Origin: Escherichia phage ph0011
Direction: 5' to 3' (one strand)
DNA: 64,000 nucleotides
Sequence record: OP557969.1
In this document: one piece after another, positions 6,797 to 60,638 of the stretch
Position numbering within the stretch: the stretch's first letter is position 1
Layout: each line of letters begins with the position of its first letter
The notes under the pieces: generated by a model
Database searches by the model: none
What the model saw: only the letters and a program-made list of their open reading frames with translations
Told to the model about the DNA's origin: nothing
Made by a program: the position numbers and the translations under genes

Positions 6797-6858
6797 GAGA
6801 CAATAATCACATTGGTGATACAATGTTTTGTGACAAAGAGACATGATAAGGAATTCAA

Positions 6859-10296: not shown

Positions 10297-10328
10297 GGAA
10301 GACCCAATGGGTCTTCCTTGTCCTTTAT
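10297..10328 (+). terminator. rho-independent terminator (weak T tract)
   Basis: Perfect palindrome GGAAGACCCAATGGGTCTTCC then TTGTCCTTT. Confidence 0.5.
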
Positions 10329-10346
10329 ATAAATAATCTATAGATA

Positions 10347-12767
10347 ATGGTAGCTTGGCTATGGAGAATTACAATGACAACTTTTACCCCACGTTGGGAT
10401 ATAAAAGCCGATGCTCGATATATACAAGAAGGACAAGACATTCTTTTGCGTTTGAGTATCAACAAAAATAGCACAACAGATGCTAGTTATGTATTAAATG
10501 AAGATGAATACTTAGAGATGATTCTTACAATACAATGCTTGGATAGTTCAGGTGCAGTATTTGAGCCAGAATCACATTATACTTTTTTTGTGGGTAATGA
10601 TGAAAACAGTTTTATACCCATTTCTGAAGGAACTACTGGAAATAAATTGGTAAATGGGAAACATAAATGTAAAATTAGTAAAACACAATTTAACTTATCA
10701 GGCAGTACTAATAGTGAAGATATATATTTTATAAAAATTCATTGTAAAAATAACGGAACATTCAACAATACCGAAATTATCAATTTTTATTTACAGGCAG
10801 TAAATGTGATGTATTTTGGTAATATTGCACCTAGTGGTGTGTTGGGAACAACTGACGCATCAGTAACATATGATAGCCAGGAAGTTTGGGTTACACCTGG
10901 TGTAGAGATTGGTGATGATAAAAAACCATACTGCATCGGGGATGTTGATTATGGTTCTAACAGTACATTGTTTGTACAAGGATTTGGAAGAAGACGACCT
11001 TTTATATTTGGGACTGACACTACTCTTGATTTCACCCCACGAGTATTCTACCCAGCTTATAGATTGCTTGATATGGATATATCGGAAGTTCCACAGAATC
11101 ACATCACAAAGGATTATGCCGTTTTTAAACCAGCACAAACTGTATGGCCTATTTCGGGTATAAACAAAGAAGTTAAAGTTAACATTCAAAACAAAAACGG
11201 AAGCACAATTGATACTGGAATGATTTTCAACCCAAATGGTCAATTACTTCAAACATTTTTATACGAATCTGAAGCATGTGACGCATATTTTAAGGTTGAG
11301 ATTGTAGACATTTTAAGTACTTATGTAGATGATAGTGAGAGATTTGCAATAAATCAACGTTACAAAGCATATCAAATGTGGGTATGTCCAGAAGACATAG
11401 ACACTATATATTCAATCTCTGATAAACCATTACCAAATCATTTGTACCAATTAAAAGATAATATAGTTTATCCATATGTAATTAGTGGTGAGTATGACGA
11501 TGGCACACTTAAGCCTGTATATGATAGTAGTGATTGGATAGATTTAGGTTATTACGATCCAACTCTTGGTGAAAATATCATTGGAATGCAAAAAATATTC
11601 AGGGTATTAGTTAATGCAGAAGAAGGGAATAACATAAACTTCATAACTGAGAGTGACTTAGGAACCATTCATGTTGGTGAATACTTTGGGAATAGCGTCT
11701 ATCCTAAGATAGAAACTGATAGTACAAGTCAGGTTTCTTATATATTAGATGGTGGTGATGATATTAGAAAATATGGAATGGACTTAACACCAGATGGTTA
11801 TCTAGTAGGAACTGCATTTGCTAAAAGTGTGGATTTTAGTGCTAATGATGATATTAAACTTTCATTTTACGTTAAAGCATTCAGTTCTGAAGGTGGTGAG
11901 GCAAGAAAATTATTTAATCTTAAAATCATAAGAGGTTTTGGGCAAAATTATTTAAGTGCACATGTTCTACCATCTGTTTCTTTTGAAAGAGATTGGTTTA
12001 AATGTATTAGTACTTCATCATTTACTAACCAATTATTTTTCCGTCAATCCGATGATAGATATGGTCTTCAAAAAGTACCAAAAATGCTATTGAAAGAAAA
12101 TTTTCTAAGTCAAACGTACCCATACACCAATCTTTCTGATATTAAGAAAGTATTACGAAAGAGTATTGTTGATACAAACGGAACCACTATTCCGAATGGT
12201 AAATTTAAAATGGTAATGGGTAATTATAAATTGTTATCAGCACTTGACAATCAAGGAAATTTACAATATGATTTATTGTATCGTGAAGTTTTACCTGAAG
12301 GTTCGTTGGTGTCAGTGTCTAAAAATCCACGCCAGTACACACAAATTGACAATGGCCTACTGGGTGAACTGTTTGGTTTACGACAAAACATATTCAAAGC
12401 AATTGGTGAAGATACAACCAACTTGGTCAAAGATCCTACAGATTTACAAAACCGTGGTATGTATGTTGATGCTATACCTAGTGTTAGTGATGAGATGCTT
12501 GATACTGTTCCTAGGTTTATGAATCATCCCTATATTGAAAATAACCTACAGAAAAAATTCATGCCTATAATTCCAGTTGCATATTGTCTGCCAGGCAAAG
12601 GTGAAGCATTTTTCAACACTTTACTACAGAATAATGAACATGGTACAATGGTCGGTCTAGAATTTGAAATTACATCGGTGGAGTTTGGGTATTTTTCACA
12701 TGAATCAGATAATTATGTACCTGATACATTTGTAATTACATTACCAAACAATAACATAGGAGTTTAA
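10347..12767 (+). CDS. hypothetical large protein
   Basis: 806-aa uninterrupted ORF; start may be ~10374 (MTTFTPRW); no motif recognised. Confidence 0.55.
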   Translation: MVAWLWRITMTTFTPRWDIKADARYIQEGQDILLRLSINKNSTTDASYVLNEDEYLEMILTIQCLDSSGAVFEPESHYTFFVGNDENSFIPISEGTTGNKLVNGKHKCKISKTQFNLSGSTNSEDIYFIKIHCKNNGTFNNTEIINFYLQAVNVMYFGNIAPSGVLGTTDASVTYDSQEVWVTPGVEIGDDKKPYCIGDVDYGSNSTLFVQGFGRRRPFIFGTDTTLDFTPRVFYPAYRLLDMDISEVPQNHITKDYAVFKPAQTVWPISGINKEVKVNIQNKNGSTIDTGMIFNPNGQLLQTFLYESEACDAYFKVEIVDILSTYVDDSERFAINQRYKAYQMWVCPEDIDTIYSISDKPLPNHLYQLKDNIVYPYVISGEYDDGTLKPVYDSSDWIDLGYYDPTLGENIIGMQKIFRVLVNAEEGNNINFITESDLGTIHVGEYFGNSVYPKIETDSTSQVSYILDGGDDIRKYGMDLTPDGYLVGTAFAKSVDFSANDDIKLSFYVKAFSSEGGEARKLFNLKIIRGFGQNYLSAHVLPSVSFERDWFKCISTSSFTNQLFFRQSDDRYGLQKVPKMLLKENFLSQTYPYTNLSDIKKVLRKSIVDTNGTTIPNGKFKMVMGNYKLLSALDNQGNLQYDLLYREVLPEGSLVSVSKNPRQYTQIDNGLLGELFGLRQNIFKAIGEDTTNLVKDPTDLQNRGMYVDAIPSVSDEMLDTVPRFMNHPYIENNLQKKFMPIIPVAYCLPGKGEAFFNTLLQNNEHGTMVGLEFEITSVEFGYFSHESDNYVPDTFVITLPNNNIGV

Positions 12768-31300: not shown

Positions 31301-33181
31301 ATGAAACCTATCCGAGTACTATCTCTTTTTAATGGAATGAGTGTAGGATACATGGCATTAAAAGATGCTGGTATCCCTGTTGAAAAATATTATTCATCCG
31401 AAATTGACAAATTTGCTATAGCTGAATCCCAAGCTAACTTCCCCGATATAATCCAATTGGGTGATGTAACTAAGTGGAGAGAATGGGATATTGAATGGGA
31501 CAAGATAGATCTACTGATGGGTGGTTTTCCATGCTTCCCAGCAGGAACTATGATAATGACAAATAAAGGTCATAAAGATATAAAAGATATAAAAATTGGT
31601 GATATGGTTCTTACACACACTGGACAGTACCAAAAAGTATTGAGTACTGGTGTTAAAAAGGCTCCCACTCGTATTATTACGGGTCAAGGTCACCTTCCAA
31701 TTGAATGTACCGATAATCATCCATTTTGGAGTAGGGAACGTCTAGCCAATAAATGGAATAATCAACGCCGAAGATATGATTCTGTGTTTTCTGAACCGCA
31801 ATGGGTAAATGCTATAGATCTTACTAAACAAAGTTATATTTGTAATGTTAAAAATATTACACATAATACTGTAAGTGATAAAGATGAAAAATATTGGTAT
31901 TTTGTTGGTCGTTTTATGGGTGATGGATGTGCTAGTGTATCTAATAACAAATACAGTATTACTATTGTAGATTCATTAGATAAAGTTGATGAATTGAAAA
32001 AATGCTTTGATGATTTTGGATACAAATACACATTAGCTATTAAAGATAATCATGTAAGATGTGATATATATAGCAAAAAGCTTTATGATGAATTAATATG
32101 TATTGGGCATAAATCACAAAACAAATGTTTACCACCTGAAATATTCAATGAAACTATCAATAACAAAGAAGCATTTATTAAAGGATACATGGATGCAGAT
32201 GGTTGTGAGGATAAACACAATAAAAAATACAAATTTACCACCACAAGTTATAAAATAGTTCTTGGTATGCAACAGTTAATCTTAGATACTTATCAAAGTC
32301 ATTGTACTATTAGCCAAACTGTTCCAAAAACAAAAAAATATATAAAAAATAAGTTGGTTAATCAGCTTCCGTATTGGAATGTTCATTTTAGCTATAATAA
32401 AATTAAAAGAGATGATGTAATATATGATGAAATTTATATATGGAATCGTGGTGTAAAAAGTAATGTACCAACCGGAGAATGGAAAACCGTTTACAATATT
32501 GAAGTTGCAGTAGATAACACATATACAGCGAACAATATTGTAGTTCATAACTGCCAAGCGTGGTCAGTTGCAGGTAAACAGGGTGGAATAAATGATCCTC
32601 GTGGTATGTTATTCCATACAATGGTTGATATTTACCAGCACATAAAAAGTCTCAATCCAGACTTGAAAGTACTGTTCGAGAATGTTAAAATGAAAGAAGA
32701 TTTCAAGCAATACATTAATAGTGTTCTTGAGATGACACCAGTACTGATAAATTCCCAGCATTATACGCCTCACTTCAGGCAGCGATATTACTGGTACAGT
32801 ACTGATAAACTTTTTATACCACCTGCATTATCCAATGCACCTAAACTTCAAGATATTATTGAAGATGGTTGGTACACTGACAGAACCGCTTCGTACTGTA
32901 TAGATGCTAACTATTTTAAGGGTGGTGATTGTAACCAGTACTTTAATAAATCAAGAAGACAAATTGTTTTCAAAGAACCTGATATCGATAGGGATTTCCT
33001 TCTTGAACATGGTAAGCGAAATGTGGACTATCGTCATTTAACAGTACAAGAGTGTTGCATGTTGCAAGGAATTGATGTAAACTACTTCAAAGTTAGTAGT
33101 TCAACACAAGCATACAAAATGCTTGGGAATGGATGGACTATGCCAGTTATATCACACTTACTACGAGATATATTCTTTTGA
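31301..33181 (+). CDS. DNA (cytosine-5)-methyltransferase interrupted in-frame by an intein
   Basis: 626-aa ORF; exteins carry C5-MTase motifs I (LFNGMSVG), IV (GGFP-C...QAWSVAG), VI (FENV), X (LGNGWTMPV); 340-aa insert between them. Confidence 0.8.
   Translation: MKPIRVLSLFNGMSVGYMALKDAGIPVEKYYSSEIDKFAIAESQANFPDIIQLGDVTKWREWDIEWDKIDLLMGGFPCFPAGTMIMTNKGHKDIKDIKIGDMVLTHTGQYQKVLSTGVKKAPTRIITGQGHLPIECTDNHPFWSRERLANKWNNQRRRYDSVFSEPQWVNAIDLTKQSYICNVKNITHNTVSDKDEKYWYFVGRFMGDGCASVSNNKYSITIVDSLDKVDELKKCFDDFGYKYTLAIKDNHVRCDIYSKKLYDELICIGHKSQNKCLPPEIFNETINNKEAFIKGYMDADGCEDKHNKKYKFTTTSYKIVLGMQQLILDTYQSHCTISQTVPKTKKYIKNKLVNQLPYWNVHFSYNKIKRDDVIYDEIYIWNRGVKSNVPTGEWKTVYNIEVAVDNTYTANNIVVHNCQAWSVAGKQGGINDPRGMLFHTMVDIYQHIKSLNPDLKVLFENVKMKEDFKQYINSVLEMTPVLINSQHYTPHFRQRYYWYSTDKLFIPPALSNAPKLQDIIEDGWYTDRTASYCIDANYFKGGDCNQYFNKSRRQIVFKEPDIDRDFLLEHGKRNVDYRHLTVQECCMLQGIDVNYFKVSSSTQAYKMLGNGWTMPVISHLLRDIFF
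31532..32551 (+). mobile_element. Intein with LAGLIDADG homing-endonuclease domain inside the C5-MTase gene
   Basis: Begins CFPAGTMIM (block A Cys1), two LAGLIDADG-type motifs (FVGRFMGDGC, FIKGYMDADGC), ends VVHN followed by extein Cys (PCQ catalytic Cys as +1 residue). Confidence 0.75.
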
Positions 33182-37901: not shown

Positions 37902-38170
37902 TGACGAAAGAAGAAATGAAATCTCGCTTAAGCGAACTGAAGAAAGAACGCAAACTAGTCCGTTTGGACTGGGACATTCTTAACAAAAAAGATGAGCAAT
38001 CATATGCTAACTGGAGTTCTGATAAAGTTCGCAATGAACGTAGTAAAGAAGACAACAAACAGTTTATGGCACTGTCCAAGCGTTTATCTTCATTGAACAG
38101 TGAGATTACTGGTCTTCAAAAGGAAATTATTTCAATTCTTCGAGCGGAAATTAACTCACTATATGAATAA
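37901..38170 (+). CDS. hypothetical protein (coiled-coil-like)
   Basis: 89-aa ORF, K/E-rich. Confidence 0.45.
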   Translation: MTKEEMKSRLSELKKERKLVRLDWDILNKKDEQSYANWSSDKVRNERSKEDNKQFMALSKRLSSLNSEITGLQKEIISILRAEINSLYE

Positions 38171-43592: not shown

Positions 43593-43606
43593 ATAACGGG
43601 ACAACA

Positions 43607-43722
<116 letters not shown>

Positions 43723-44325: not shown

Positions 44326-45038
<713 letters not shown>

Positions 45039-46700: not shown

Positions 46701-46914
<214 letters not shown>

Positions 46915-52867: not shown

Positions 52868-53035
52868 TTATTCGTTGTAACCATCAAATACAGGTGAAAT
52901 AATATTATCTATATCATAAACGATAATACTACATCCACTAAGCTTATATCTTCCCCCGATATAATTGTTCTTGACATTTATTCCACCATTGGTATAATTA
53001 TTATAACATATTTATTAGGTATAACAAAAAAGTGC

Positions 53036-54362: not shown

Positions 54363-54823
54363 TGATACTACTAGTATTATTATCAAGCCCGTTTGCTTAT
54401 TTTATTCTGTATAATATTTTTAGTAATGCTCATCATTTTAAATACGCACAAACAATTGCAAAACATGAAGGATGGTGGCATTATTTTCCAGCACTACTGT
54501 GTTCATATATGTTCAATGAACGCTATTTTATTTTTCCAGAATATACAAAGCACTATTATGATACTAAAATAAATGGCATAATTGAGTACTGTCTACGTAA
54601 TTATCTGAATAATACAGATAATGTTAAAGTGAATTTATTAAATGGAAATTCACCAAGAATAGTCTGTACGTCTTACATAGAAGACCCCATTTACTTATAT
54701 CTATATGATCATAGTATTTCGGTTCGTTGTTCTATGCGTAGTAGTTGTGAGTACTTTATCTTACCACCTACACAAATAAGATTAATAGAAAAATACTTGA
54801 AATTGATTGACAAAAAAGATTAG
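54362..54823 (+). CDS. hypothetical protein
   Basis: 153-aa ORF. Confidence 0.45.
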   Translation: MILLVLLSSPFAYFILYNIFSNAHHFKYAQTIAKHEGWWHYFPALLCSYMFNERYFIFPEYTKHYYDTKINGIIEYCLRNYLNNTDNVKVNLLNGNSPRIVCTSYIEDPIYLYLYDHSISVRCSMRSSCEYFILPPTQIRLIEKYLKLIDKKD

Positions 54824-54835
54824 TAGTGTTATAAT
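54808..54835 (+). promoter_or_regulatory. sigma-70-like promoter with extended -10 (TTGACA-16-TGtTATAAT)
   Basis: ATTGACAAAAAAGATTAGTAGTGTTATAATCAC upstream of CDS 54868. Confidence 0.5.
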
Positions 54836-55750: not shown

Positions 55751-56172
55751 GAGTATATAATAAAATTTGTATTTTTGTATTTTTAGTTTGTGCGTTCAAT
55801 TCCTTTGGTTATTACTGCAACGAAAACAATATTTCATATGGATTAAATCCTTTGTGGTTTTCAATTTCAAATGTAGTTCAAATTGGTATTGCTATTATGT
55901 CTGCCCTTATGTTCTGTCCAATTGTCACAATGGATACTGATCATGAAAGGCTTGGATTTATCCGTGATACTGGTGACGAACCTTACAGTAGATTGATTGT
56001 GTTGTATCCATTTGTTGTTATATTAGGTACTAATATCCAACTTGGGTCTTTATCTAATAGTATTACTTCAGCAGCCATTACCATCTTTGCATTCACATTT
56101 TTTATTGTACACAAATCAGTACTTAAATGGTATATCACCCAATTGGCAGAGAAGGGTACGGAAATCAGTTGA
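55747..56172 (+). CDS. polytopic membrane protein
   Basis: 141 aa, 3-4 hydrophobic segments. Confidence 0.45.
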   Translation: MRVYNKICIFVFLVCAFNSFGYYCNENNISYGLNPLWFSISNVVQIGIAIMSALMFCPIVTMDTDHERLGFIRDTGDEPYSRLIVLYPFVVILGTNIQLGSLSNSITSAAITIFAFTFFIVHKSVLKWYITQLAEKGTEIS

Positions 56173-56231
56173 CGTGATGTATCGAGTCATATATAATTAT
56201 TACATCAAAACGATCAAATGGTAAGGAACTT

Positions 56232-56483
56232 ATGAACATTGATAAGGTCAAAGAACTTAGTGCAGCACTAATTAAGAACGAAGAAGTATGTGAAGAACTT
56301 CGCAGTACTATCAAAGTGGAGTATGCACGTCTTCAAGCTATGCTTCAGGAGTCAGAATGGGTTGTAACAAAATCTATCGAATCCATCTATAAGGATATCG
56401 AATCTCTTTTCAACAAGAAAAGTAAAATCGAATCTGATTCATATAACAAACGCAAAGAATTAAATTCAGTACTTGGAATCTAA
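56232..56483 (+). CDS. hypothetical protein
   Basis: 83-aa ORF. Confidence 0.45.
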   Translation: MNIDKVKELSAALIKNEEVCEELRSTIKVEYARLQAMLQESEWVVTKSIESIYKDIESLFNKKSKIESDSYNKRKELNSVLGI

Positions 56484-56492
56484 AAAAAGTAG

Positions 56493-56521
56493 TTGACATA
56501 AAACAAAATATGGAGTACAGT
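56493..56521 (+). promoter_or_regulatory. possible promoter (TTGACA, weak -10) with adjacent hairpin
   Basis: AGTTGACATAAAACAAAATATGGAGTACAGTGTGCTCCAT; IR ATGGAG/CTCCAT. Confidence 0.3.
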
Positions 56522-56559
56522 GTGCTCCATAATTAATTATAAGATAAAAGGAAACCGTT

Positions 56560-56820
56560 ATGAAATCTATTCTCGTTGCAGTTAACCAGATTGCTTCTCC
56601 ATCTTTCAACTTCAAACAAGCTGTTGCTGATAAATTGAAGAAAATCTGCCCCAACGCTGAATTAACGTTCTGTGTGTTTGATTCTGAAAAAGTATCAACG
56701 GTTGATCTAAACTATATCATCAACGACATTAAAAGCATTTCAGGTGAAAGTAATTTAAACTTACTAAATGAGATTGCTGATGATTATGATCATACACTAG
56801 TAATTTCGGAGAAATATTAA
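56560..56820 (+). CDS. hypothetical protein
   Basis: 86-aa ORF. Confidence 0.45.
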   Translation: MKSILVAVNQIASPSFNFKQAVADKLKKICPNAELTFCVFDSEKVSTVDLNYIINDIKSISGESNLNLLNEIADDYDHTLVISEKY

Positions 56821-56825
56821 ATTAA

Positions 56826-57245
56826 ATGATTAGATTAATTCAGTACTTAATCATTAAATTTTTTGGCTGTCATACAATTGAAGGAAAAGCTTCACTTGCA
56901 CATAAAATTTTTGTAGCATTGTGTACAGGTGATTATGACGTATTGAATAAGTACTGTAAATCTCAAGCATGTATTGATATAATGGCACTTCGTATCTATG
57001 AGTGTCAATTCAATAGATATAATTTTTACCAGTACAGATATGATAAACAAGAATTTGATAGTTTTGAAATGTTAAAAAATTTATGCAACAATAAAAAGAA
57101 TATGCATATATCTGAATTTGTTGCTTTGTATTTTTATTTAAAAAGTTCATTGTTCATAACCACGAGTCAACTTTTTGATACTAGATTTAATGCATTCAAA
57201 GGTAAAGAATTTTACATATATGATAAATTCTTAGATAAGGTTTAA
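56826..57245 (+). CDS. hypothetical protein
   Basis: 139-aa ORF. Confidence 0.45.
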   Translation: MIRLIQYLIIKFFGCHTIEGKASLAHKIFVALCTGDYDVLNKYCKSQACIDIMALRIYECQFNRYNFYQYRYDKQEFDSFEMLKNLCNNKKNMHISEFVALYFYLKSSLFITTSQLFDTRFNAFKGKEFYIYDKFLDKV

Positions 57246-57246
57246 T

Positions 57247-57744
57247 ATGACAACAGTTTACATTGATAAACGATTAAATTTATTGATTACTGATTCTAGA
57301 GTTACATTAACCATACCACGAAACTTATTTGGTATTTTCCCACTAAAACCAAAATATCAATATGGAGTTGTTAATCAAAAAACTTTATATGTACATGACC
57401 GTTTATTCAGTGCTAGTGGGGCAATAAGTGAAATTGATAAAGTACTGAATTGGTTAATTAACAAAGAACCTGTTATACCGCATAAAAAACTAGGTTGTCA
57501 TTGTGTTCTACTATCCAAAGATTATATCATTCACATGAATATATCTAATGGTAAGTTCACTAAGAAACTTCAATATCTTCATAAAGACTATACTTTCTTT
57601 ATGGGAAGTGGTGGAGAGTATATGGTAGATGCAGCAATACATGAAGACACTACGACTTTATGTAATAAAGTTTTTAGTACATTCATGGACGTTCATAACC
57701 ATGATTCTTTTACCGATAGCAATATTAATGTGTATAAATTTTAA
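57247..57744 (+). CDS. hypothetical protein
   Basis: 165-aa ORF. Confidence 0.45.
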   Translation: MTTVYIDKRLNLLITDSRVTLTIPRNLFGIFPLKPKYQYGVVNQKTLYVHDRLFSASGAISEIDKVLNWLINKEPVIPHKKLGCHCVLLSKDYIIHMNISNGKFTKKLQYLHKDYTFFMGSGGEYMVDAAIHEDTTTLCNKVFSTFMDVHNHDSFTDSNINVYKF

Positions 57745-57765
57745 TTTCGTCAATAGGAGAAGTAG

Positions 57766-58731
57766 GTGAAAAAACTTGATTTGAATACAATTGCAGATGA
57801 AGTTCTGGATGAATGCTTTGGTAATGAAGAAGTGAATACGCTGGATGCGTTAGAACCAGTTCAAGAAAAAGATAACATTGACGAGAAAAATAATGGTAAT
57901 TTCAAGTTTAATATTAGTCTTAAGCGACCAGCAAATGTAACAAATGAAGATATTATTCGTGATATTCAAGCAGGTATTAACGTAAAGAAAAATACTGAAC
58001 TATTAGTTCGTTATAATTACGGCTTGATTATTGATGTTGCAAGTAAATGCACGTGTTATATTCCATTTGAAGATAAGATTTCATATGGTATCGAGGGATT
58101 CATGCGAGCATTAAAAACATTTGACCTTAGTAAGAATGTAAAGTTCGCTACGTATGCATCGTCAAGTATCTATATGACTGTATACAATGAAAGTTCAGAT
58201 GCTAATCATCTGGTCCATTTCCCTCGTTACATGAGTGTTAATAAGATACAAGTGAAACGCTTCTGTCATAATTATGAGCGTCAGCATGGTTGCCGTCCTA
58301 CACCAGAAATTATTTCTGAAGAGACTGGTATTGAAATCCAGCACGTTAAGAATTGTTTATTATTCCAAAGTGAATATACTTCACTGGATGCACCATTGGA
58401 TGGTGTTTCTGATGGGACGATGAGTGATATTCTGCATTCATCTGAAGGTGATTATAATCTTAATGTTGACAGTATTCGTGCACCGTTGCGTTATACCATC
58501 AACGAACTAACTAATGAGTTGAGTGCTAAGGAATGTGAGATTATTCAACGTGTTCATGGGTTAGGTGAATTTAATCCTGAAACACTACGTGAAATTGCTG
58601 ATAGTGGTTTTATCGATGACAACGGTAAGTGTGTAAAATCCAGATCTTCGGTTCATCGTAAATACAGTGATGCTCTTAAGAAACTCAAGAAATTAGTGCT
58701 TGCTAAAGGGTACGAATACGAAGATTTCTAA
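57766..58731 (+). CDS. sigma-70 family RNA polymerase sigma factor
   Basis: 321 aa; GTG start with AGGAGA RBS; region-2-like YGLIIDVA...ISYGIEGFMRALKTFD...KFATYASSSI and C-terminal HTH-like region; followed by terminator. Confidence 0.65.
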   Translation: MKKLDLNTIADEVLDECFGNEEVNTLDALEPVQEKDNIDEKNNGNFKFNISLKRPANVTNEDIIRDIQAGINVKKNTELLVRYNYGLIIDVASKCTCYIPFEDKISYGIEGFMRALKTFDLSKNVKFATYASSSIYMTVYNESSDANHLVHFPRYMSVNKIQVKRFCHNYERQHGCRPTPEIISEETGIEIQHVKNCLLFQSEYTSLDAPLDGVSDGTMSDILHSSEGDYNLNVDSIRAPLRYTINELTNELSAKECEIIQRVHGLGEFNPETLREIADSGFIDDNGKCVKSRSSVHRKYSDALKKLKKLVLAKGYEYEDF

Positions 58732-58738
58732 ATTGTAA

Positions 58739-58765
58739 AGGTTGGCATATGCCAACCTTTTTTAT
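58739..58765 (+). terminator. rho-independent terminator
   Basis: AGGTTGGCATATGCCAACCT + TTTTTA after sigma-factor gene. Confidence 0.75.
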
Positions 58766-58769
58766 TGGG

Positions 58770-59410
58770 ACAAAGCATAAATATATGATATAATAATTAT
58801 GTACAATCCTGTTGAATGCAGAAATGCATATAAATTAGAACCTGATCCTATCGAAAACGTAGATGGCAGATGAGCAGTTCAGCAGTGCGATGAGCAGAAG
58901 AAACCCGTCAGAAGTGGGCATAGTTTGAACCCCTCACGGCAATGCGGCTCAATAAAGAACTCCGATAAGCATACAGAGAGTTCCTAGATAGACATATAAG
59001 GAATCACACCTTACCAGATTTGCTAAGGGAGTCTTGAAATAAGACAGCTTGAACTTTGATTGTATAGAGTTTCAAGTGAGTGCTGGGATGAAAAGACCAG
59101 TGACCGTTGCATATGACCGTGATAGGGAGAAACAGAGCAACCCGCTTCCGTTTGTGATTGATCATTTTTACAATATAGATCCGTCCAAAATTCACGATAC
59201 AATAATATCCGATGCCATCAGCGTCAAGAAGAGACTTAATTGTCTCTTTTTTATTACTTTCATTCCCCTGTGGGGGATGAAATAGTCCTCAACAAATCCC
59301 GTCAAGTATTAAAAGTCCTAGACAGTTATGAAACATTCGCGTATAATACGTAGTATTAGAAGCGAACAGACATCTCGAAGAGATGGATGATTAACTATTA
59401 AGGAATATCC
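58770..59410 (+). ncRNA. GC-rich non-coding island, candidate structured RNA
   Basis: ~640 nt without a convincing ORF (track ORFs on both strands conflict, TTG start); locally GC-rich by eye; several stable hairpins. Confidence 0.3.
59229..59253 (+). terminator. terminator-like hairpin within non-coding island
   Basis: AGAGACTTAATTGTCTCT + TTTTTATT; followed by second hairpin TTCATTCCCCTGTGGGGGATGAA. Confidence 0.5.
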
Positions 59411-59411
59411 A

Positions 59412-59621
59412 ATGAATTCAATCATATTTTTAGTAGTAGCTTTTTCTGTTAATTCCGGTGTACAAATAACCCCAATGAATTCCATGAATCAATGTATAGC
59501 AGTTCGTGATAGTACATACGAACAAGTAAACAAAAATATTAGAATGACAGTTAGTAAAGAACAAATGTGGTGTTACAATAGTAATACTAACGCAAAGCTT
59601 ATTGTAGGACAAACTCAATGA
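59412..59621 (+). CDS. small secreted hypothetical protein
   Basis: 69 aa; N-terminal hydrophobic signal-like segment. Confidence 0.4.
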   Translation: MNSIIFLVVAFSVNSGVQITPMNSMNQCIAVRDSTYEQVNKNIRMTVSKEQMWCYNSNTNAKLIVGQTQ

Positions 59622-59848
59622 GTTATGGTGTTCGTTTTGAGATTCGCTCTATTGTTATTAATGATAATAAGAAAGCATCGTTAGATAGTGACATACGTGA
59701 AATTTATCTATCATGTATCCGTGCAAAATCTGAAGCAGATGCATTAGCACAAATGTATATTTTTAACTTTTCAAACGGATTTAATTTGGAACGAGTTATT
59801 GAAGTGAAAAAAGTACTTATAGGTTGTAGCATAGAAGGAATCGTGTAA
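59618..59848 (+). CDS. hypothetical protein
   Basis: 76-aa ORF, ATGA overlap. Confidence 0.4.
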   Translation: MSYGVRFEIRSIVINDNKKASLDSDIREIYLSCIRAKSEADALAQMYIFNFSNGFNLERVIEVKKVLIGCSIEGIV

Positions 59849-59849
59849 A

Positions 59850-60638
59850 ATGTGCACTATAGATGAATTAATTAGACGGAATTCAAAATACTACAAACCA
59901 TCAGAAATTGTAGGCAACATTACTAAATCAGAGTTCGGACCAAATACACGAAAACTCATTCATGTAATGTTACGTGATGGCTTTAAATGTGATTGTTGTG
60001 GTGAATCCAATGTGGTATTCACTTTACATAAGCACAGTACTAAAGAACGTTATAAATTCAGACCTTATGTACTTAAAGGGAAACGCCTTGTACGCATGAC
60101 GTTAGACCATAATGTACTGGACTGTCTTCAGGGTGGTAATGACAAAGAAAACATGACTGCACTGTGTGAGGATTGCAATGCATTACGCCAGCATAAATTT
60201 GCTGAGTACAGTGAGTTTAAGTTCTGGTATCATAACGCAGATCGTTCCATTGAACCTGACGTTAACTACTGCTTTATTGAGTACATTAAGAATGCAAAAG
60301 ATACATACATTCTTAAATCAATGTCACCTATTACAGTGTTTCCTGAGAATCTATTCACTACATTAAAGAATAGTTTTATGGTAGGTGATATTGATGCATT
60401 CAAGTATTTTGACAAAGGTGCAAAACATTTTGAAGTTCAATGTCTTAGTACTGCACTATGTGAACTTATTAAAATTTACATAAAAGATTATTTGGGTATT
60501 GACAATGTACGCGTACCAGAGTATACTTTTTCTATTGATTTCGATTGTGAATCAATCAAAGAGTTTGGGATTCTTTTCAATAAACAAATAGAACTTGCAA
60601 TTCAAAACGAAATCAAGTACTATAATACTAACATTTAA
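59850..60638 (+). CDS. HNH-family endonuclease
   Basis: 262 aa; CDCCG...H...LDHNVLDCLQGGNDKENMTALCEDCNALRQH (HNH motif with Cys pairs). Confidence 0.6.
   Translation: MCTIDELIRRNSKYYKPSEIVGNITKSEFGPNTRKLIHVMLRDGFKCDCCGESNVVFTLHKHSTKERYKFRPYVLKGKRLVRMTLDHNVLDCLQGGNDKENMTALCEDCNALRQHKFAEYSEFKFWYHNADRSIEPDVNYCFIEYIKNAKDTYILKSMSPITVFPENLFTTLKNSFMVGDIDAFKYFDKGAKHFEVQCLSTALCELIKIYIKDYLGIDNVRVPEYTFSIDFDCESIKEFGILFNKQIELAIQNEIKYYNTNI

Follow-up and report, generated by a model that had tools for sequence, protein, structure and literature searches.

We identified in the genome of Escherichia phage ph0011 a gene for a genuine sigma-70-family protein, which probably directs the host RNA polymerase to a second class of phage promoters as the middle step of a transcription cascade (probability about 0.6). 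The gene lies at positions 57766-58731, on the plus strand, of a 64,000-nucleotide stretch of record OP557969.1, here called the window, which comes from a RaK2-like jumbo myovirus of the 121Q/PBECO4/UE-S1 type (Asteriusvirus). The gene and its family were already known, and the sigma is a hallmark of the RaK2/121Q-type jumbo phages that is discussed in reviews. We establish here the family and fold of the protein, the existence of two promoter classes, and a covariation across phage genera between the -35 box of the second class (class II) and the recognition helix of the sigma. The class II promoters and the link between box and helix are new and are proposed here.

Family and fold of the sigma protein

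The gene and the three sigma domains of its product are placed as follows.

57766-58731, plus strand: gene for a sigma-70-family sigma factor, orthologue of 121Q gp167 (321 residues, GTG start; from the list of open reading frames, ORFs)
57940-58206, plus strand: sigma domain 2, residues about 59-147 (Pfam region 2, ungapped alignment with cellular sigmas, model confidence 89-98)
58225-58449, plus strand: sigma domain 3, residues about 154-228 (Pfam region 3, alignments)
58486-58704, plus strand: sigma domain 4, residues about 241-313 (AlphaFold2 model, RpoS models, sub-threshold Pfam region 4)

The first-pass annotation of this DNA had described the product as a sigma-70-family sigma factor with matches to regions 2 and 4, and the family assignment is borne out. 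Among Pfam domains, Sigma70_r3 (PF04539) matched residues 162-228 at 40.3 bits (cut-off 25.3) and Sigma70_r2 (PF04542) matched residues 80-141 at 25.7 bits (cut-off 24), so that sigma-70 domain hits are present for regions 2 and 3. Of the two regions originally named, region 2 thus stands on its profile score, whereas Sigma70_r4 (PF04545) stayed at 16.5 bits, below its cut-off of 24.1, with a match limited to residues 251-279; region 4 was recovered from structure. Both peptides that had been read as sigma region 2 and as a C-terminal helix-turn-helix (HTH) occur in the translation (...ISYGIEGFMRALKTFDLSKNVKFATYASSSIYMTV... and ...ECEIIQRVHGLGEFNPETLREIADSG...). PHROG 351, "RNA polymerase sigma factor", matched at 3e-53 across residues 1-317. 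The top NCBIfam matches were TIGR02393 RpoD_Cterm (85 bits, cut-off 354) and RpoS (70 bits), and all curated NCBIfam cut-offs were missed by a wide margin; the RpoS models align as far as residues 316-319. A sequence search of solved structures matched 59 distinct sigma chains, the best being RpoD at 7.9e-16. Most of these alignments end at residues 278-281, and that with Thermus SigA reaches residue 300.

In an AlphaFold2 model from an alignment of 113 sequences, the mean predicted local distance difference test score (pLDDT) was 83; domain 2 scored 89-98 and domain 4 scored 93-97. The top 50 Foldseek matches in the PDB were all sigma or sigma-holoenzyme entries (sigma-S, sigma-A, sigma-70), with a probability of 1.0 wherever one was printed, over 240-290 columns. 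Domain 4 has the complete region 4 fold at pLDDT 93-97, consisting of two region 4.1 helices (241-249 and 254-264), the first HTH helix (274-280), and the recognition helix (293-313, KSRSSVHRKYSDALKKL).

The protein belongs with neither the primary sigmas nor the gp55-type factors. It lacks region 1.1 and the non-conserved region of primary sigmas, and a Pfam search of the protein gave no match to region 1.1 or 1.2. Group 1 (RpoD) models score far below their cut-offs (PRK05658, 59.5 against 555; TIGR02393, as above), and the protein has just 321 residues. The same is true of the group 3 models for FliA/WhiG and SigB/F/G (TIGR02479, 54.8 against 189.6; TIGR02980, 51.2 against 234). Late sigmas of the T4 gp55 type are set apart by the presence here of domains 3 and 4 as well. 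The protein does have the features of the RaK2-like clade of PHROG 351, namely a full-length match, a conserved N-terminal motif, and a hairpin, G[FY]xDxxGK, in the HTH turn. From its domains the protein is predicted to bind core RNA polymerase and to initiate transcription at specific promoters.

Departures from cellular sigmas

An exhaustive search separated the clade clearly, with 18 phage representatives at 117 bits or more and the next matches, cellular sigmas, at 89 bits or less. Two features of the clade are absent from cellular sigmas.

57766-57825, plus strand: N-terminal motif MKKLDLNxIxxEVLDECF, residues 1-20 (conserved in 28 clade sequences)
58606-58638, plus strand: 8-residue insertion (GFIDDNGKCVK) in the region 4.2 HTH turn (alignments, AlphaFold2)

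The model places a short helix at residues 11-18 of the N-terminal motif with low confidence; from the motif, a variable acidic linker extends to about residue 55. The HTH-turn insertion occurs in 28 of 28 clade sequences and is modelled as a beta-hairpin (strands 282-283 and 289-290, pLDDT 96). This insertion accounts for the sub-threshold Pfam region 4 score and for the early ends of the alignments with solved structures.

For aligned positions we use the numbering of Escherichia coli sigma-70. Domain 2 keeps D403, F419, F427, T429, and Y430, which serve core binding and the pocket for A-11. D403 is invariant in an alignment that includes cellular sigmas, and F427 and Y430 are nearly so (at least 90%); within the phage clade the window residues D103 and F127 never vary, and T129 and Y130 hardly do. 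Other positions have changed. The RpoD residues W433, W434, Q437, T440, E585, R588, and Q589 are S, S, M, Y, S, H, and R in the window sigma; throughout the clade, in region 2.3/2.4, the W433/W434 pair has given way to small residues and Q437 and T440 differ. In region 3.0, H455 has become Y and E458 has become V. The last three of the RpoD positions listed read the -35 element, and the recognition helix that holds them is SRSSVHRKY as against TRERIRQIE in sigma-70. Domains 2, 3, and 4 are nevertheless retained across genera at 27-45% identity, including the A-11 pocket and the whole recognition helix.

A comparison of window positions 56232-60638 showed that the sigma is 59% identical between 121Q-type and fEgEco12-type phages, whereas its other neighbours range from 75% to 94%. 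Despite this divergence the two types have the recognition-helix residues in common. One neighbour, a short ORF (g+1), is more diverged than the sigma (49%), probably as an artefact of a shorter annotation in 121Q.

Two promoter classes

Promoters were surveyed in the window and across the whole 121Q genome. Class I has the host sigma-70 form TTGACA-N16-18-TAnAAT. The 121Q genome has 44 exact sites, all on the plus strand and most of them at 50-155 kb, among small early ORFs; the sigma gene, at 89 kb, falls within this region. The somewhat looser pattern TTGACA-N16-18-TAnnnT occurs in the window 25 times on the plus strand and twice on the minus strand. One of the class I promoters of the window is at 52971.

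Class II has the form G[AG]GACA-N16-(TGn)TATAAT, or more fully t-G[AG]GACA-a, exactly 16 nt, and (TGn)TATAAT. The pattern G[AG]GACA-N16-TAnAAT has 17 sites in 121Q, all on the plus strand, against 0.83 expected on both strands, and 14 of the 17 carry TGn. These sites precede the genes for SSB (two sites), primase, exonuclease, and topoisomerase II, the DNA-polymerase region, and the gene for a late sigma; class II promoters also precede a tRNA cluster. The late sigma gene, gp591, starts at 321985, and its class II site is at 321900. The gp55-like gene of phage CBB is reported to have the same promoter arrangement (PMC5259590). The late genes of 121Q, for capsid and baseplate, are preceded by TATAAATA.

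The window has three class II sites.

6797-6824, plus strand: GAGACA-N16-(TGa)TACAAT before the gene for the topoisomerase II large subunit (orthologous site in 121Q at 38013)
43598-43625, plus strand: GGGACA-N16-(TGa)TATAAT, 10 nt before tRNA-Ser/tRNA-Arg
58767-58794, plus strand: GGGACA-N16-(TGa)TATAAT, directly 3' of the sigma terminator

At the position of the third site the box is GGGACA in UE-S1 and GGGATG in 121Q, and fEgEco12 has GGGACA-N16-TACAAT.

Class II was recognized by reading the regions upstream of replication genes and not by k-mer enrichment. In 139 upstream regions of 121Q that lack a good sigma-70 match, k-mer enrichment returned just the late-type motif (T)ATAAATA and a duplicated cassette. 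The signal from that cassette (TATAGTAT/GCCAGTAC) was rejected as a promoter motif, being the duplicated spacer of an array of RCC1-like paralogues. The array comprises about 12 paralogues on the minus strand at 117-131 kb of 121Q, and each copy of the spacer contains a terminator (GCCAGTACttgaTACTGGC and a T-run) followed by GTATTAAATATAGTATAATG.

A T4-type late promoter, TATAAATA, is also found in the window at 10328-10335 (plus strand), after a terminator and 12 nt before the gene for an 806-residue virion protein at 10347.

The class II box follows the sigma recognition helix

Orthologous positions were compared in phages of four lineages, using 41-50 kb of RaK2, CBB, and XaC1. With GAP32 and the fEgEco12 group counted in, the DNA covered was 7-50 kb of each. 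The spacing is N16 throughout. Site counts are given for the plus and minus strands.

121Q, window, and fEgEco12 (E. coli): box GrGACA; 17 plus and 0 minus in 121Q, 0.83 expected; helix [SA]RSS[VIL]HRKY
RaK2 (Klebsiella): box (tt)GAAC[AG][AG]; 5 plus and 1 minus, 0.27 expected; helix VRGTLHYKF
CBB (Pectobacterium): box TGAAAC[GTA]; 8 plus and 0 minus, 0.33 expected; helix SKATLSRRY
XaC1 (Xanthomonas): box TGAAAC[AG] with a TATACT -10; 7 plus and 0 minus, 0.07 expected; helix SKPTLSRRY

None of the phages compared contained class II sites of another type. Use of the CBB motif TGAAACG in the window was considered and rejected; it occurs five times on each strand and has no -10 partner. The box of XaC1 was predicted from its helix before its DNA was inspected.

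Region 4.2 of sigma-70 is essentially identical among the enterobacterial hosts. Phages of hosts of the same type have different boxes, and phages of Pectobacterium and Xanthomonas have the same one; the reader should therefore be encoded by the phage and co-evolve with the box. By this comparison of sequences, the class II box follows the recognition helix of the phage sigma and not the host. The box is located exactly where domain 4 of a sigma binds DNA, which suggests domain 4 of the phage sigma as the obvious candidate for its reader.

Proposed role and alternatives

We propose that the sigma is made early, probably by the host sigma-70 holoenzyme, because its gene sits in an early region rich in TTGACA/TATAAT promoters. 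The protein would then bind the host core RNA polymerase, as the conservation of the core-binding residues suggests, and would direct it to the class II promoters of the replication genes, the tRNA cluster, and the gp55-like late sigma gene. The resulting cascade would run from host sigma-70 (early) through the phage sigma (middle) to the gp55-like sigma (late, at TATAAATA promoters), with the phage sigma doing the job of MotA and AsiA in T4. The class II -10 would stay TATAAT-like because the A-11 pocket of domain 2 is kept, and the -35 would be unlike TTGACA because the region 4.2 helix is rebuilt (E585S, R588H, Q589R) and carries the 8-residue hairpin in its turn. The fullest form of this proposal, in which a dedicated middle sigma with a hairpin-bearing domain 4 reads a genus-specific -35 (GrGACA, GAACaa, or TGAAAC) at a fixed 16 nt from TATAAT, replaces MotA/AsiA, and switches on the gp55-like sigma, we put forward tentatively, at a little short of even odds. 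The first-pass annotation had suggested a distinct transcriptional layer beside gp55 and had proposed looking for a promoter consensus other than that of sigma-70. The suggestion agrees with the presence of both gp167 and gp591 in 121Q and of a second promoter class, the non-TTGACA class II.

Several points weigh against the cascade, and some of them would suit a functional sigma that has other targets, with host sigma-70 reading class II as extended -10 promoters, possibly helped by a MotA-like phage activator on the genus-specific box. The class II -10 is near-perfect and usually has the extended TG, the 14 of 17 sites with canonical TGnTATAAT being usable by sigma-70 without a good -35, and xxGACA preserves four of the six positions of TTGACA; host sigma-70 alone might therefore use class II, at least in E. 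coli. The residues with which sigma-70 reads the TG, H455 and E458, are replaced in the phage sigma despite the strong conservation of TGn in class II. The link from protein to promoter comes from comparing sequences, the contact map that we applied is that of sigma-70 (R584 with -31, R588 with -33, E585/Q589 with -34/-35), and the covariation is drawn from four lineages, in three of them from just 41-50 kb of DNA. The box shared by CBB and XaC1 could reflect their phylogenetic relatedness. Another co-evolving phage DNA-binding protein would yield the same covariation, and CBB has an HTH_37 regulator two genes upstream of its sigma; a weak or degenerate motif of another regulon could have escaped the k-mer search of the 139 regions. 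We nevertheless consider this arrangement unlikely. A phmmer search (E<=10) of all six-frame ORFs of at least 40 residues in 121Q and the window detected no homologue of T4 AsiA or MotA, although remote homologues are possible, and Pfam found nothing, and thus no DNA-binding domain, in the ten ORFs flanking the sigma gene of the window. The box lies at the exact place and spacing read by sigma domain 4, and keeps in step with the sigma helix among hosts that differ widely. The XaC1 sites have no TGn directly before the hexamer and match TTGACA at two or three of six positions, yet they are strictly conserved.

The phage sigma could instead be a general replacement for sigma-70 that reads both classes and sustains phage transcription once the host sigma has been inactivated or outcompeted, adding no temporal switch of its own. 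Its best matches are to primary and stationary-phase sigmas (RpoD_Cterm and RpoS), some records label it RpoD, and a TATAAT -10 is common to both classes. However, its scores are far under the equivalog cut-offs, the -35-reading residues, W433/W434, and Q437/T440 are changed, the HTH carries an insertion, and a reader of the universal TTGACA should not have a helix that varies by genus together with the boxes; we regard a general replacement as improbable. Less probable still, and in our view very much so, is a decoy or inhibitor with little initiation of its own, which would occupy the host core, or another partner through the conserved acidic N-terminus, and so shut off host transcription. 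Such a role would give a use to the conserved and unexplained N-terminal motif and the acidic linker after it, would agree with the loss of the tryptophan pair implicated in promoter melting, and could fit an arms race as the source of the low sigma identity between 121Q and fEgEco12 types, below that of all neighbours but one. Against it, sigmas of groups 3 and 4 are active without the tryptophan pair, and the three DNA-reading domains are kept under selection across genera, with the A-11 pocket and the whole recognition helix intact.

If the cascade is correct, it would lay out the timing of gene expression in a large group of phages in therapeutic use (121Q, PBECO4, RaK2, CBB). It would also provide a natural set of orthogonal sigma/promoter pairs working on enterobacterial core polymerase and a natural series of switches in sigma/-35 specificity. 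The unusual domain 4, with its hairpin in the HTH turn, would be of structural interest. The gene itself adds nothing new; it is the testable promoter model that could matter.

The sigma gene, its signals, and its relatives

The sigma gene stands at the 3' end of an early-region operon.

54807-54835 and 56493-56521, plus strand: further class I sites upstream of the sigma gene (consensus scan)
56169-56197, plus strand: class I promoter TTGACG-17-TATAAT heading the operon that ends with the sigma gene (consensus scan)
57755-57760, plus strand: ribosome-binding site AGGAGA (read from the sequence; 5 nt 5' of the GTG)
58737-58766, plus strand: intrinsic terminator closing the sigma operon (12-bp perfect stem and T-run)

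By its position the promoter at 56169 is probably the one used for the sigma gene. The GTG start is supported by the common N-terminus (MKKLDLN..EVLDECF) from which 27 of 27 clade homologues align, and the position equivalent to AGGAGA is an annotated ribosome-binding site in UE-S1. The terminator stem is a perfect inverted repeat of 12+12 nt at 58737-58760, followed by TTTTTTATT, and the terminator is kept in UE-S1, 121Q, and fEgEco12. The start, the ribosome-binding site, and the strong terminator had all been proposed at first reading, and each holds.

The best DNA match to the window among sequence records has 86.9% nucleotide identity. The sigma of UE-S1 shares 88% identity with the window sigma and 121Q gp167 shares 83%, and a 100% identical protein has been deposited as "RNA polymerase sigma factor" on a 350-kb contig. 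About 40 GenBank records annotate the gene, most of the related records among them, and every related Asteriusvirus record checked carries it. The papers found in our literature search annotate the sigma and presume its function; we found no experimental study of it. Phage Ecwhy_1 is said to lack the gene (PMC13070987), which would suggest that it is dispensable, but the gene is present at the start of the Ecwhy_1 record at 99.1% nucleotide identity, and we reject the claim. The gp55-like protein is encoded by a separate gene in relatives: 121Q gp591, described as a "sigma factor for late transcription" and located beside SbcCD, and CBB_244.

The window has T4-like replication genes, including those for Dda helicase, topoisomerase II, and a gp44-like clamp loader. 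The "T4-like context" of the first-pass annotation is correct to that extent; the phage, however, is a distant jumbo phage of the RaK2/121Q type and not a T4-type phage proper.

A free-standing ORF of 262 residues at 59850-60638 (plus strand), 1.1 kb downstream of the sigma gene, shares 95% identity with 121Q gp170 and carries the name "HNH endonuclease" in relatives. No Pfam domain matched it at E<=0.01. Elsewhere in the window, the gene for a C5-cytosine DNA methyltransferase (31301-33181, plus strand) contains an intein with a Hint domain and a LAGLIDADG homing endonuclease (residues about 77-428). The 121Q orthologue, gp91, has 286 residues and lacks the intein.

A structured RNA candidate downstream of the sigma gene

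The sigma gene is followed by a gap of about 660 nt, non-coding at 58767-59411, which opens with the class II promoter at 58767.

58801-59018, plus strand: candidate conserved structured RNA, starting at the predicted start site of the 58767 class II promoter

This segment is more conserved than the surrounding coding DNA, and its core hardly differs between the window, UE-S1, 121Q, and fEgEco12. The predicted fold is a cloverleaf-like four-way junction of 56 pairs, 98.6% of them paired across the four sequences. Compensatory changes occur at 15 pairs, against 5.9 +/- 1.6 in shuffled alignments (none of 500 reached this number) and 0-1 in slid controls. A search of the non-coding stretch against Rfam at gathering thresholds was empty, with no family and no 6S-like match. 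An E-value search returned STnc390, a candidate that was rejected since it covers the terminator hairpin alone and scores 28.6 bits against a gathering score of 50. The segment may alternatively be an origin of the T4 style, with a middle promoter and a purine-rich transcript. The candidate RNA adjoins the sigma gene, which does not imply that it belongs to the sigma system.

An excess of AGTACT

No hexamer is more over-represented than AGTACT in the window, 121Q, RaK2, and XaC1; in CBB it is second to CAGCAG by ratio. The window has 138 copies against 14.2 +/- 4.0 expected, and 121Q has 903 against about 100; the excess is clade-wide and roughly ninefold. The excess is 7- to 11-fold in RaK2, CBB, and XaC1, and PA5oct has none (3 copies, 11.4 expected). 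The extended consensus is a palindrome, TTCAGTACTGAA. The hexamer occurs in all reading frames and is not enriched in intergenic DNA (18 of 138 in the window). Window sites are intact in 121Q in 77% of cases, against 46-47% for control hexamers.

44342, 45065, 46716, 47397, 47518, and 49307: example AGTACT sites in the window

The hexamer abuts the -10 in 13 of the 44 class I promoters and in none of the 17 class II promoters. We rejected it as a promoter element of the phage sigma, since it is palindromic, is not enriched between genes, and is absent from class II. The E. coli SlmA site is GTGAGTACTCAC; XaC1, a phage of Xanthomonas, has just as strong an excess, which weakens mimicry of that site as an explanation. 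As guesses, the hexamer may be bound by a dimeric phage DNA-binding protein, or it may mark places of DNA modification or of priming. No report of the excess was found in the literature searched. Like the structured RNA, it appears to be unreported there, and the two may be of greater novelty than the sigma.

The tRNA region has four near-identical copies of a strong promoter cassette, (AAAGTAC)TTGACTAAATAGTTCAGTACTGATATAAT, at 44327, 45050, 45809, and 46701 (plus strand). AGTACT sites about 21 bp apart flank its -35 and abut its -10, an operator-like arrangement. The window also encodes a 92-nt tRNA-Ser with anticodon ACT, which reads AGT and AGC, at 46740-46831 (plus strand; ARAGORN and Rfam), also annotated in 121Q. 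The commonest reading frame of AGTACT is AGT-ACT (Ser-Thr), with 62 of 120 coding sites. A link between this tRNA and the AGTACT excess is speculative.

Comparison with known systems

The "RpoD-like" sigma of the RaK2-like, or group 2, jumbo phages (121Q gp167, CBB_513, GAP32, RaK2 ORF244; PHROG 351) is the same gene, in the same early-region position and with a terminator and an HNH endonuclease downstream. Nothing essential differs, the window genome being a somewhat diverged Asteriusvirus-like one. Cellular sigmas of groups 2 and 3 (RpoS, FliA/SigF) share the set of domains 2, 3, and 4 without region 1.1 and give the best profile and fold matches, but the window sigma misses their family cut-offs, and the HTH-turn hairpin and N-terminal motif are not theirs.

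Among phages of enterobacteria, the Kuravirus-type podophages phiEco32 and 7-11, of E. coli and Salmonella, have a different and smaller sigma lineage and another promoter architecture. Their sigmas (gp36 in phiEco32) were not among the matches to the window sigma in protein similarity searches. These sigmas are described as sigma-70-family proteins that bind the host core and drive non-early genes (PMC8948821).

In Bacillus phage SPO1, gp28 is an early phage sigma that displaces the host primary sigma on the core and activates middle genes, including the genes for late-specificity factors. The cascade of gp28 and gp33/gp34 is alike in outline to the one proposed here, although gp28 has no close sequence relationship to the window sigma. 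The middle promoters of SPO1 differ from those of the host in both elements, whereas class II differs in the -35 box alone; for late genes these phages have a gp55-like factor of the T4 kind. Phage sigma cascades of the SPO1 type are covered in PMC13401047.

The T4 late system (gp55/gp33/gp45) has TATAAATA late promoters and a gp55-like factor in common with these phages. T4 gp55 is small, is related to sigma region 2 alone, and acts with gp33 and the sliding clamp. The middle promoters of T4, which depend on MotA and AsiA, follow the same logic as class II, with a host-like and often extended -10, a phage box at -35, and replication genes under their control. In T4 this box is read by an activator on a remodelled host sigma-70, whereas the reader proposed here is a complete phage sigma.

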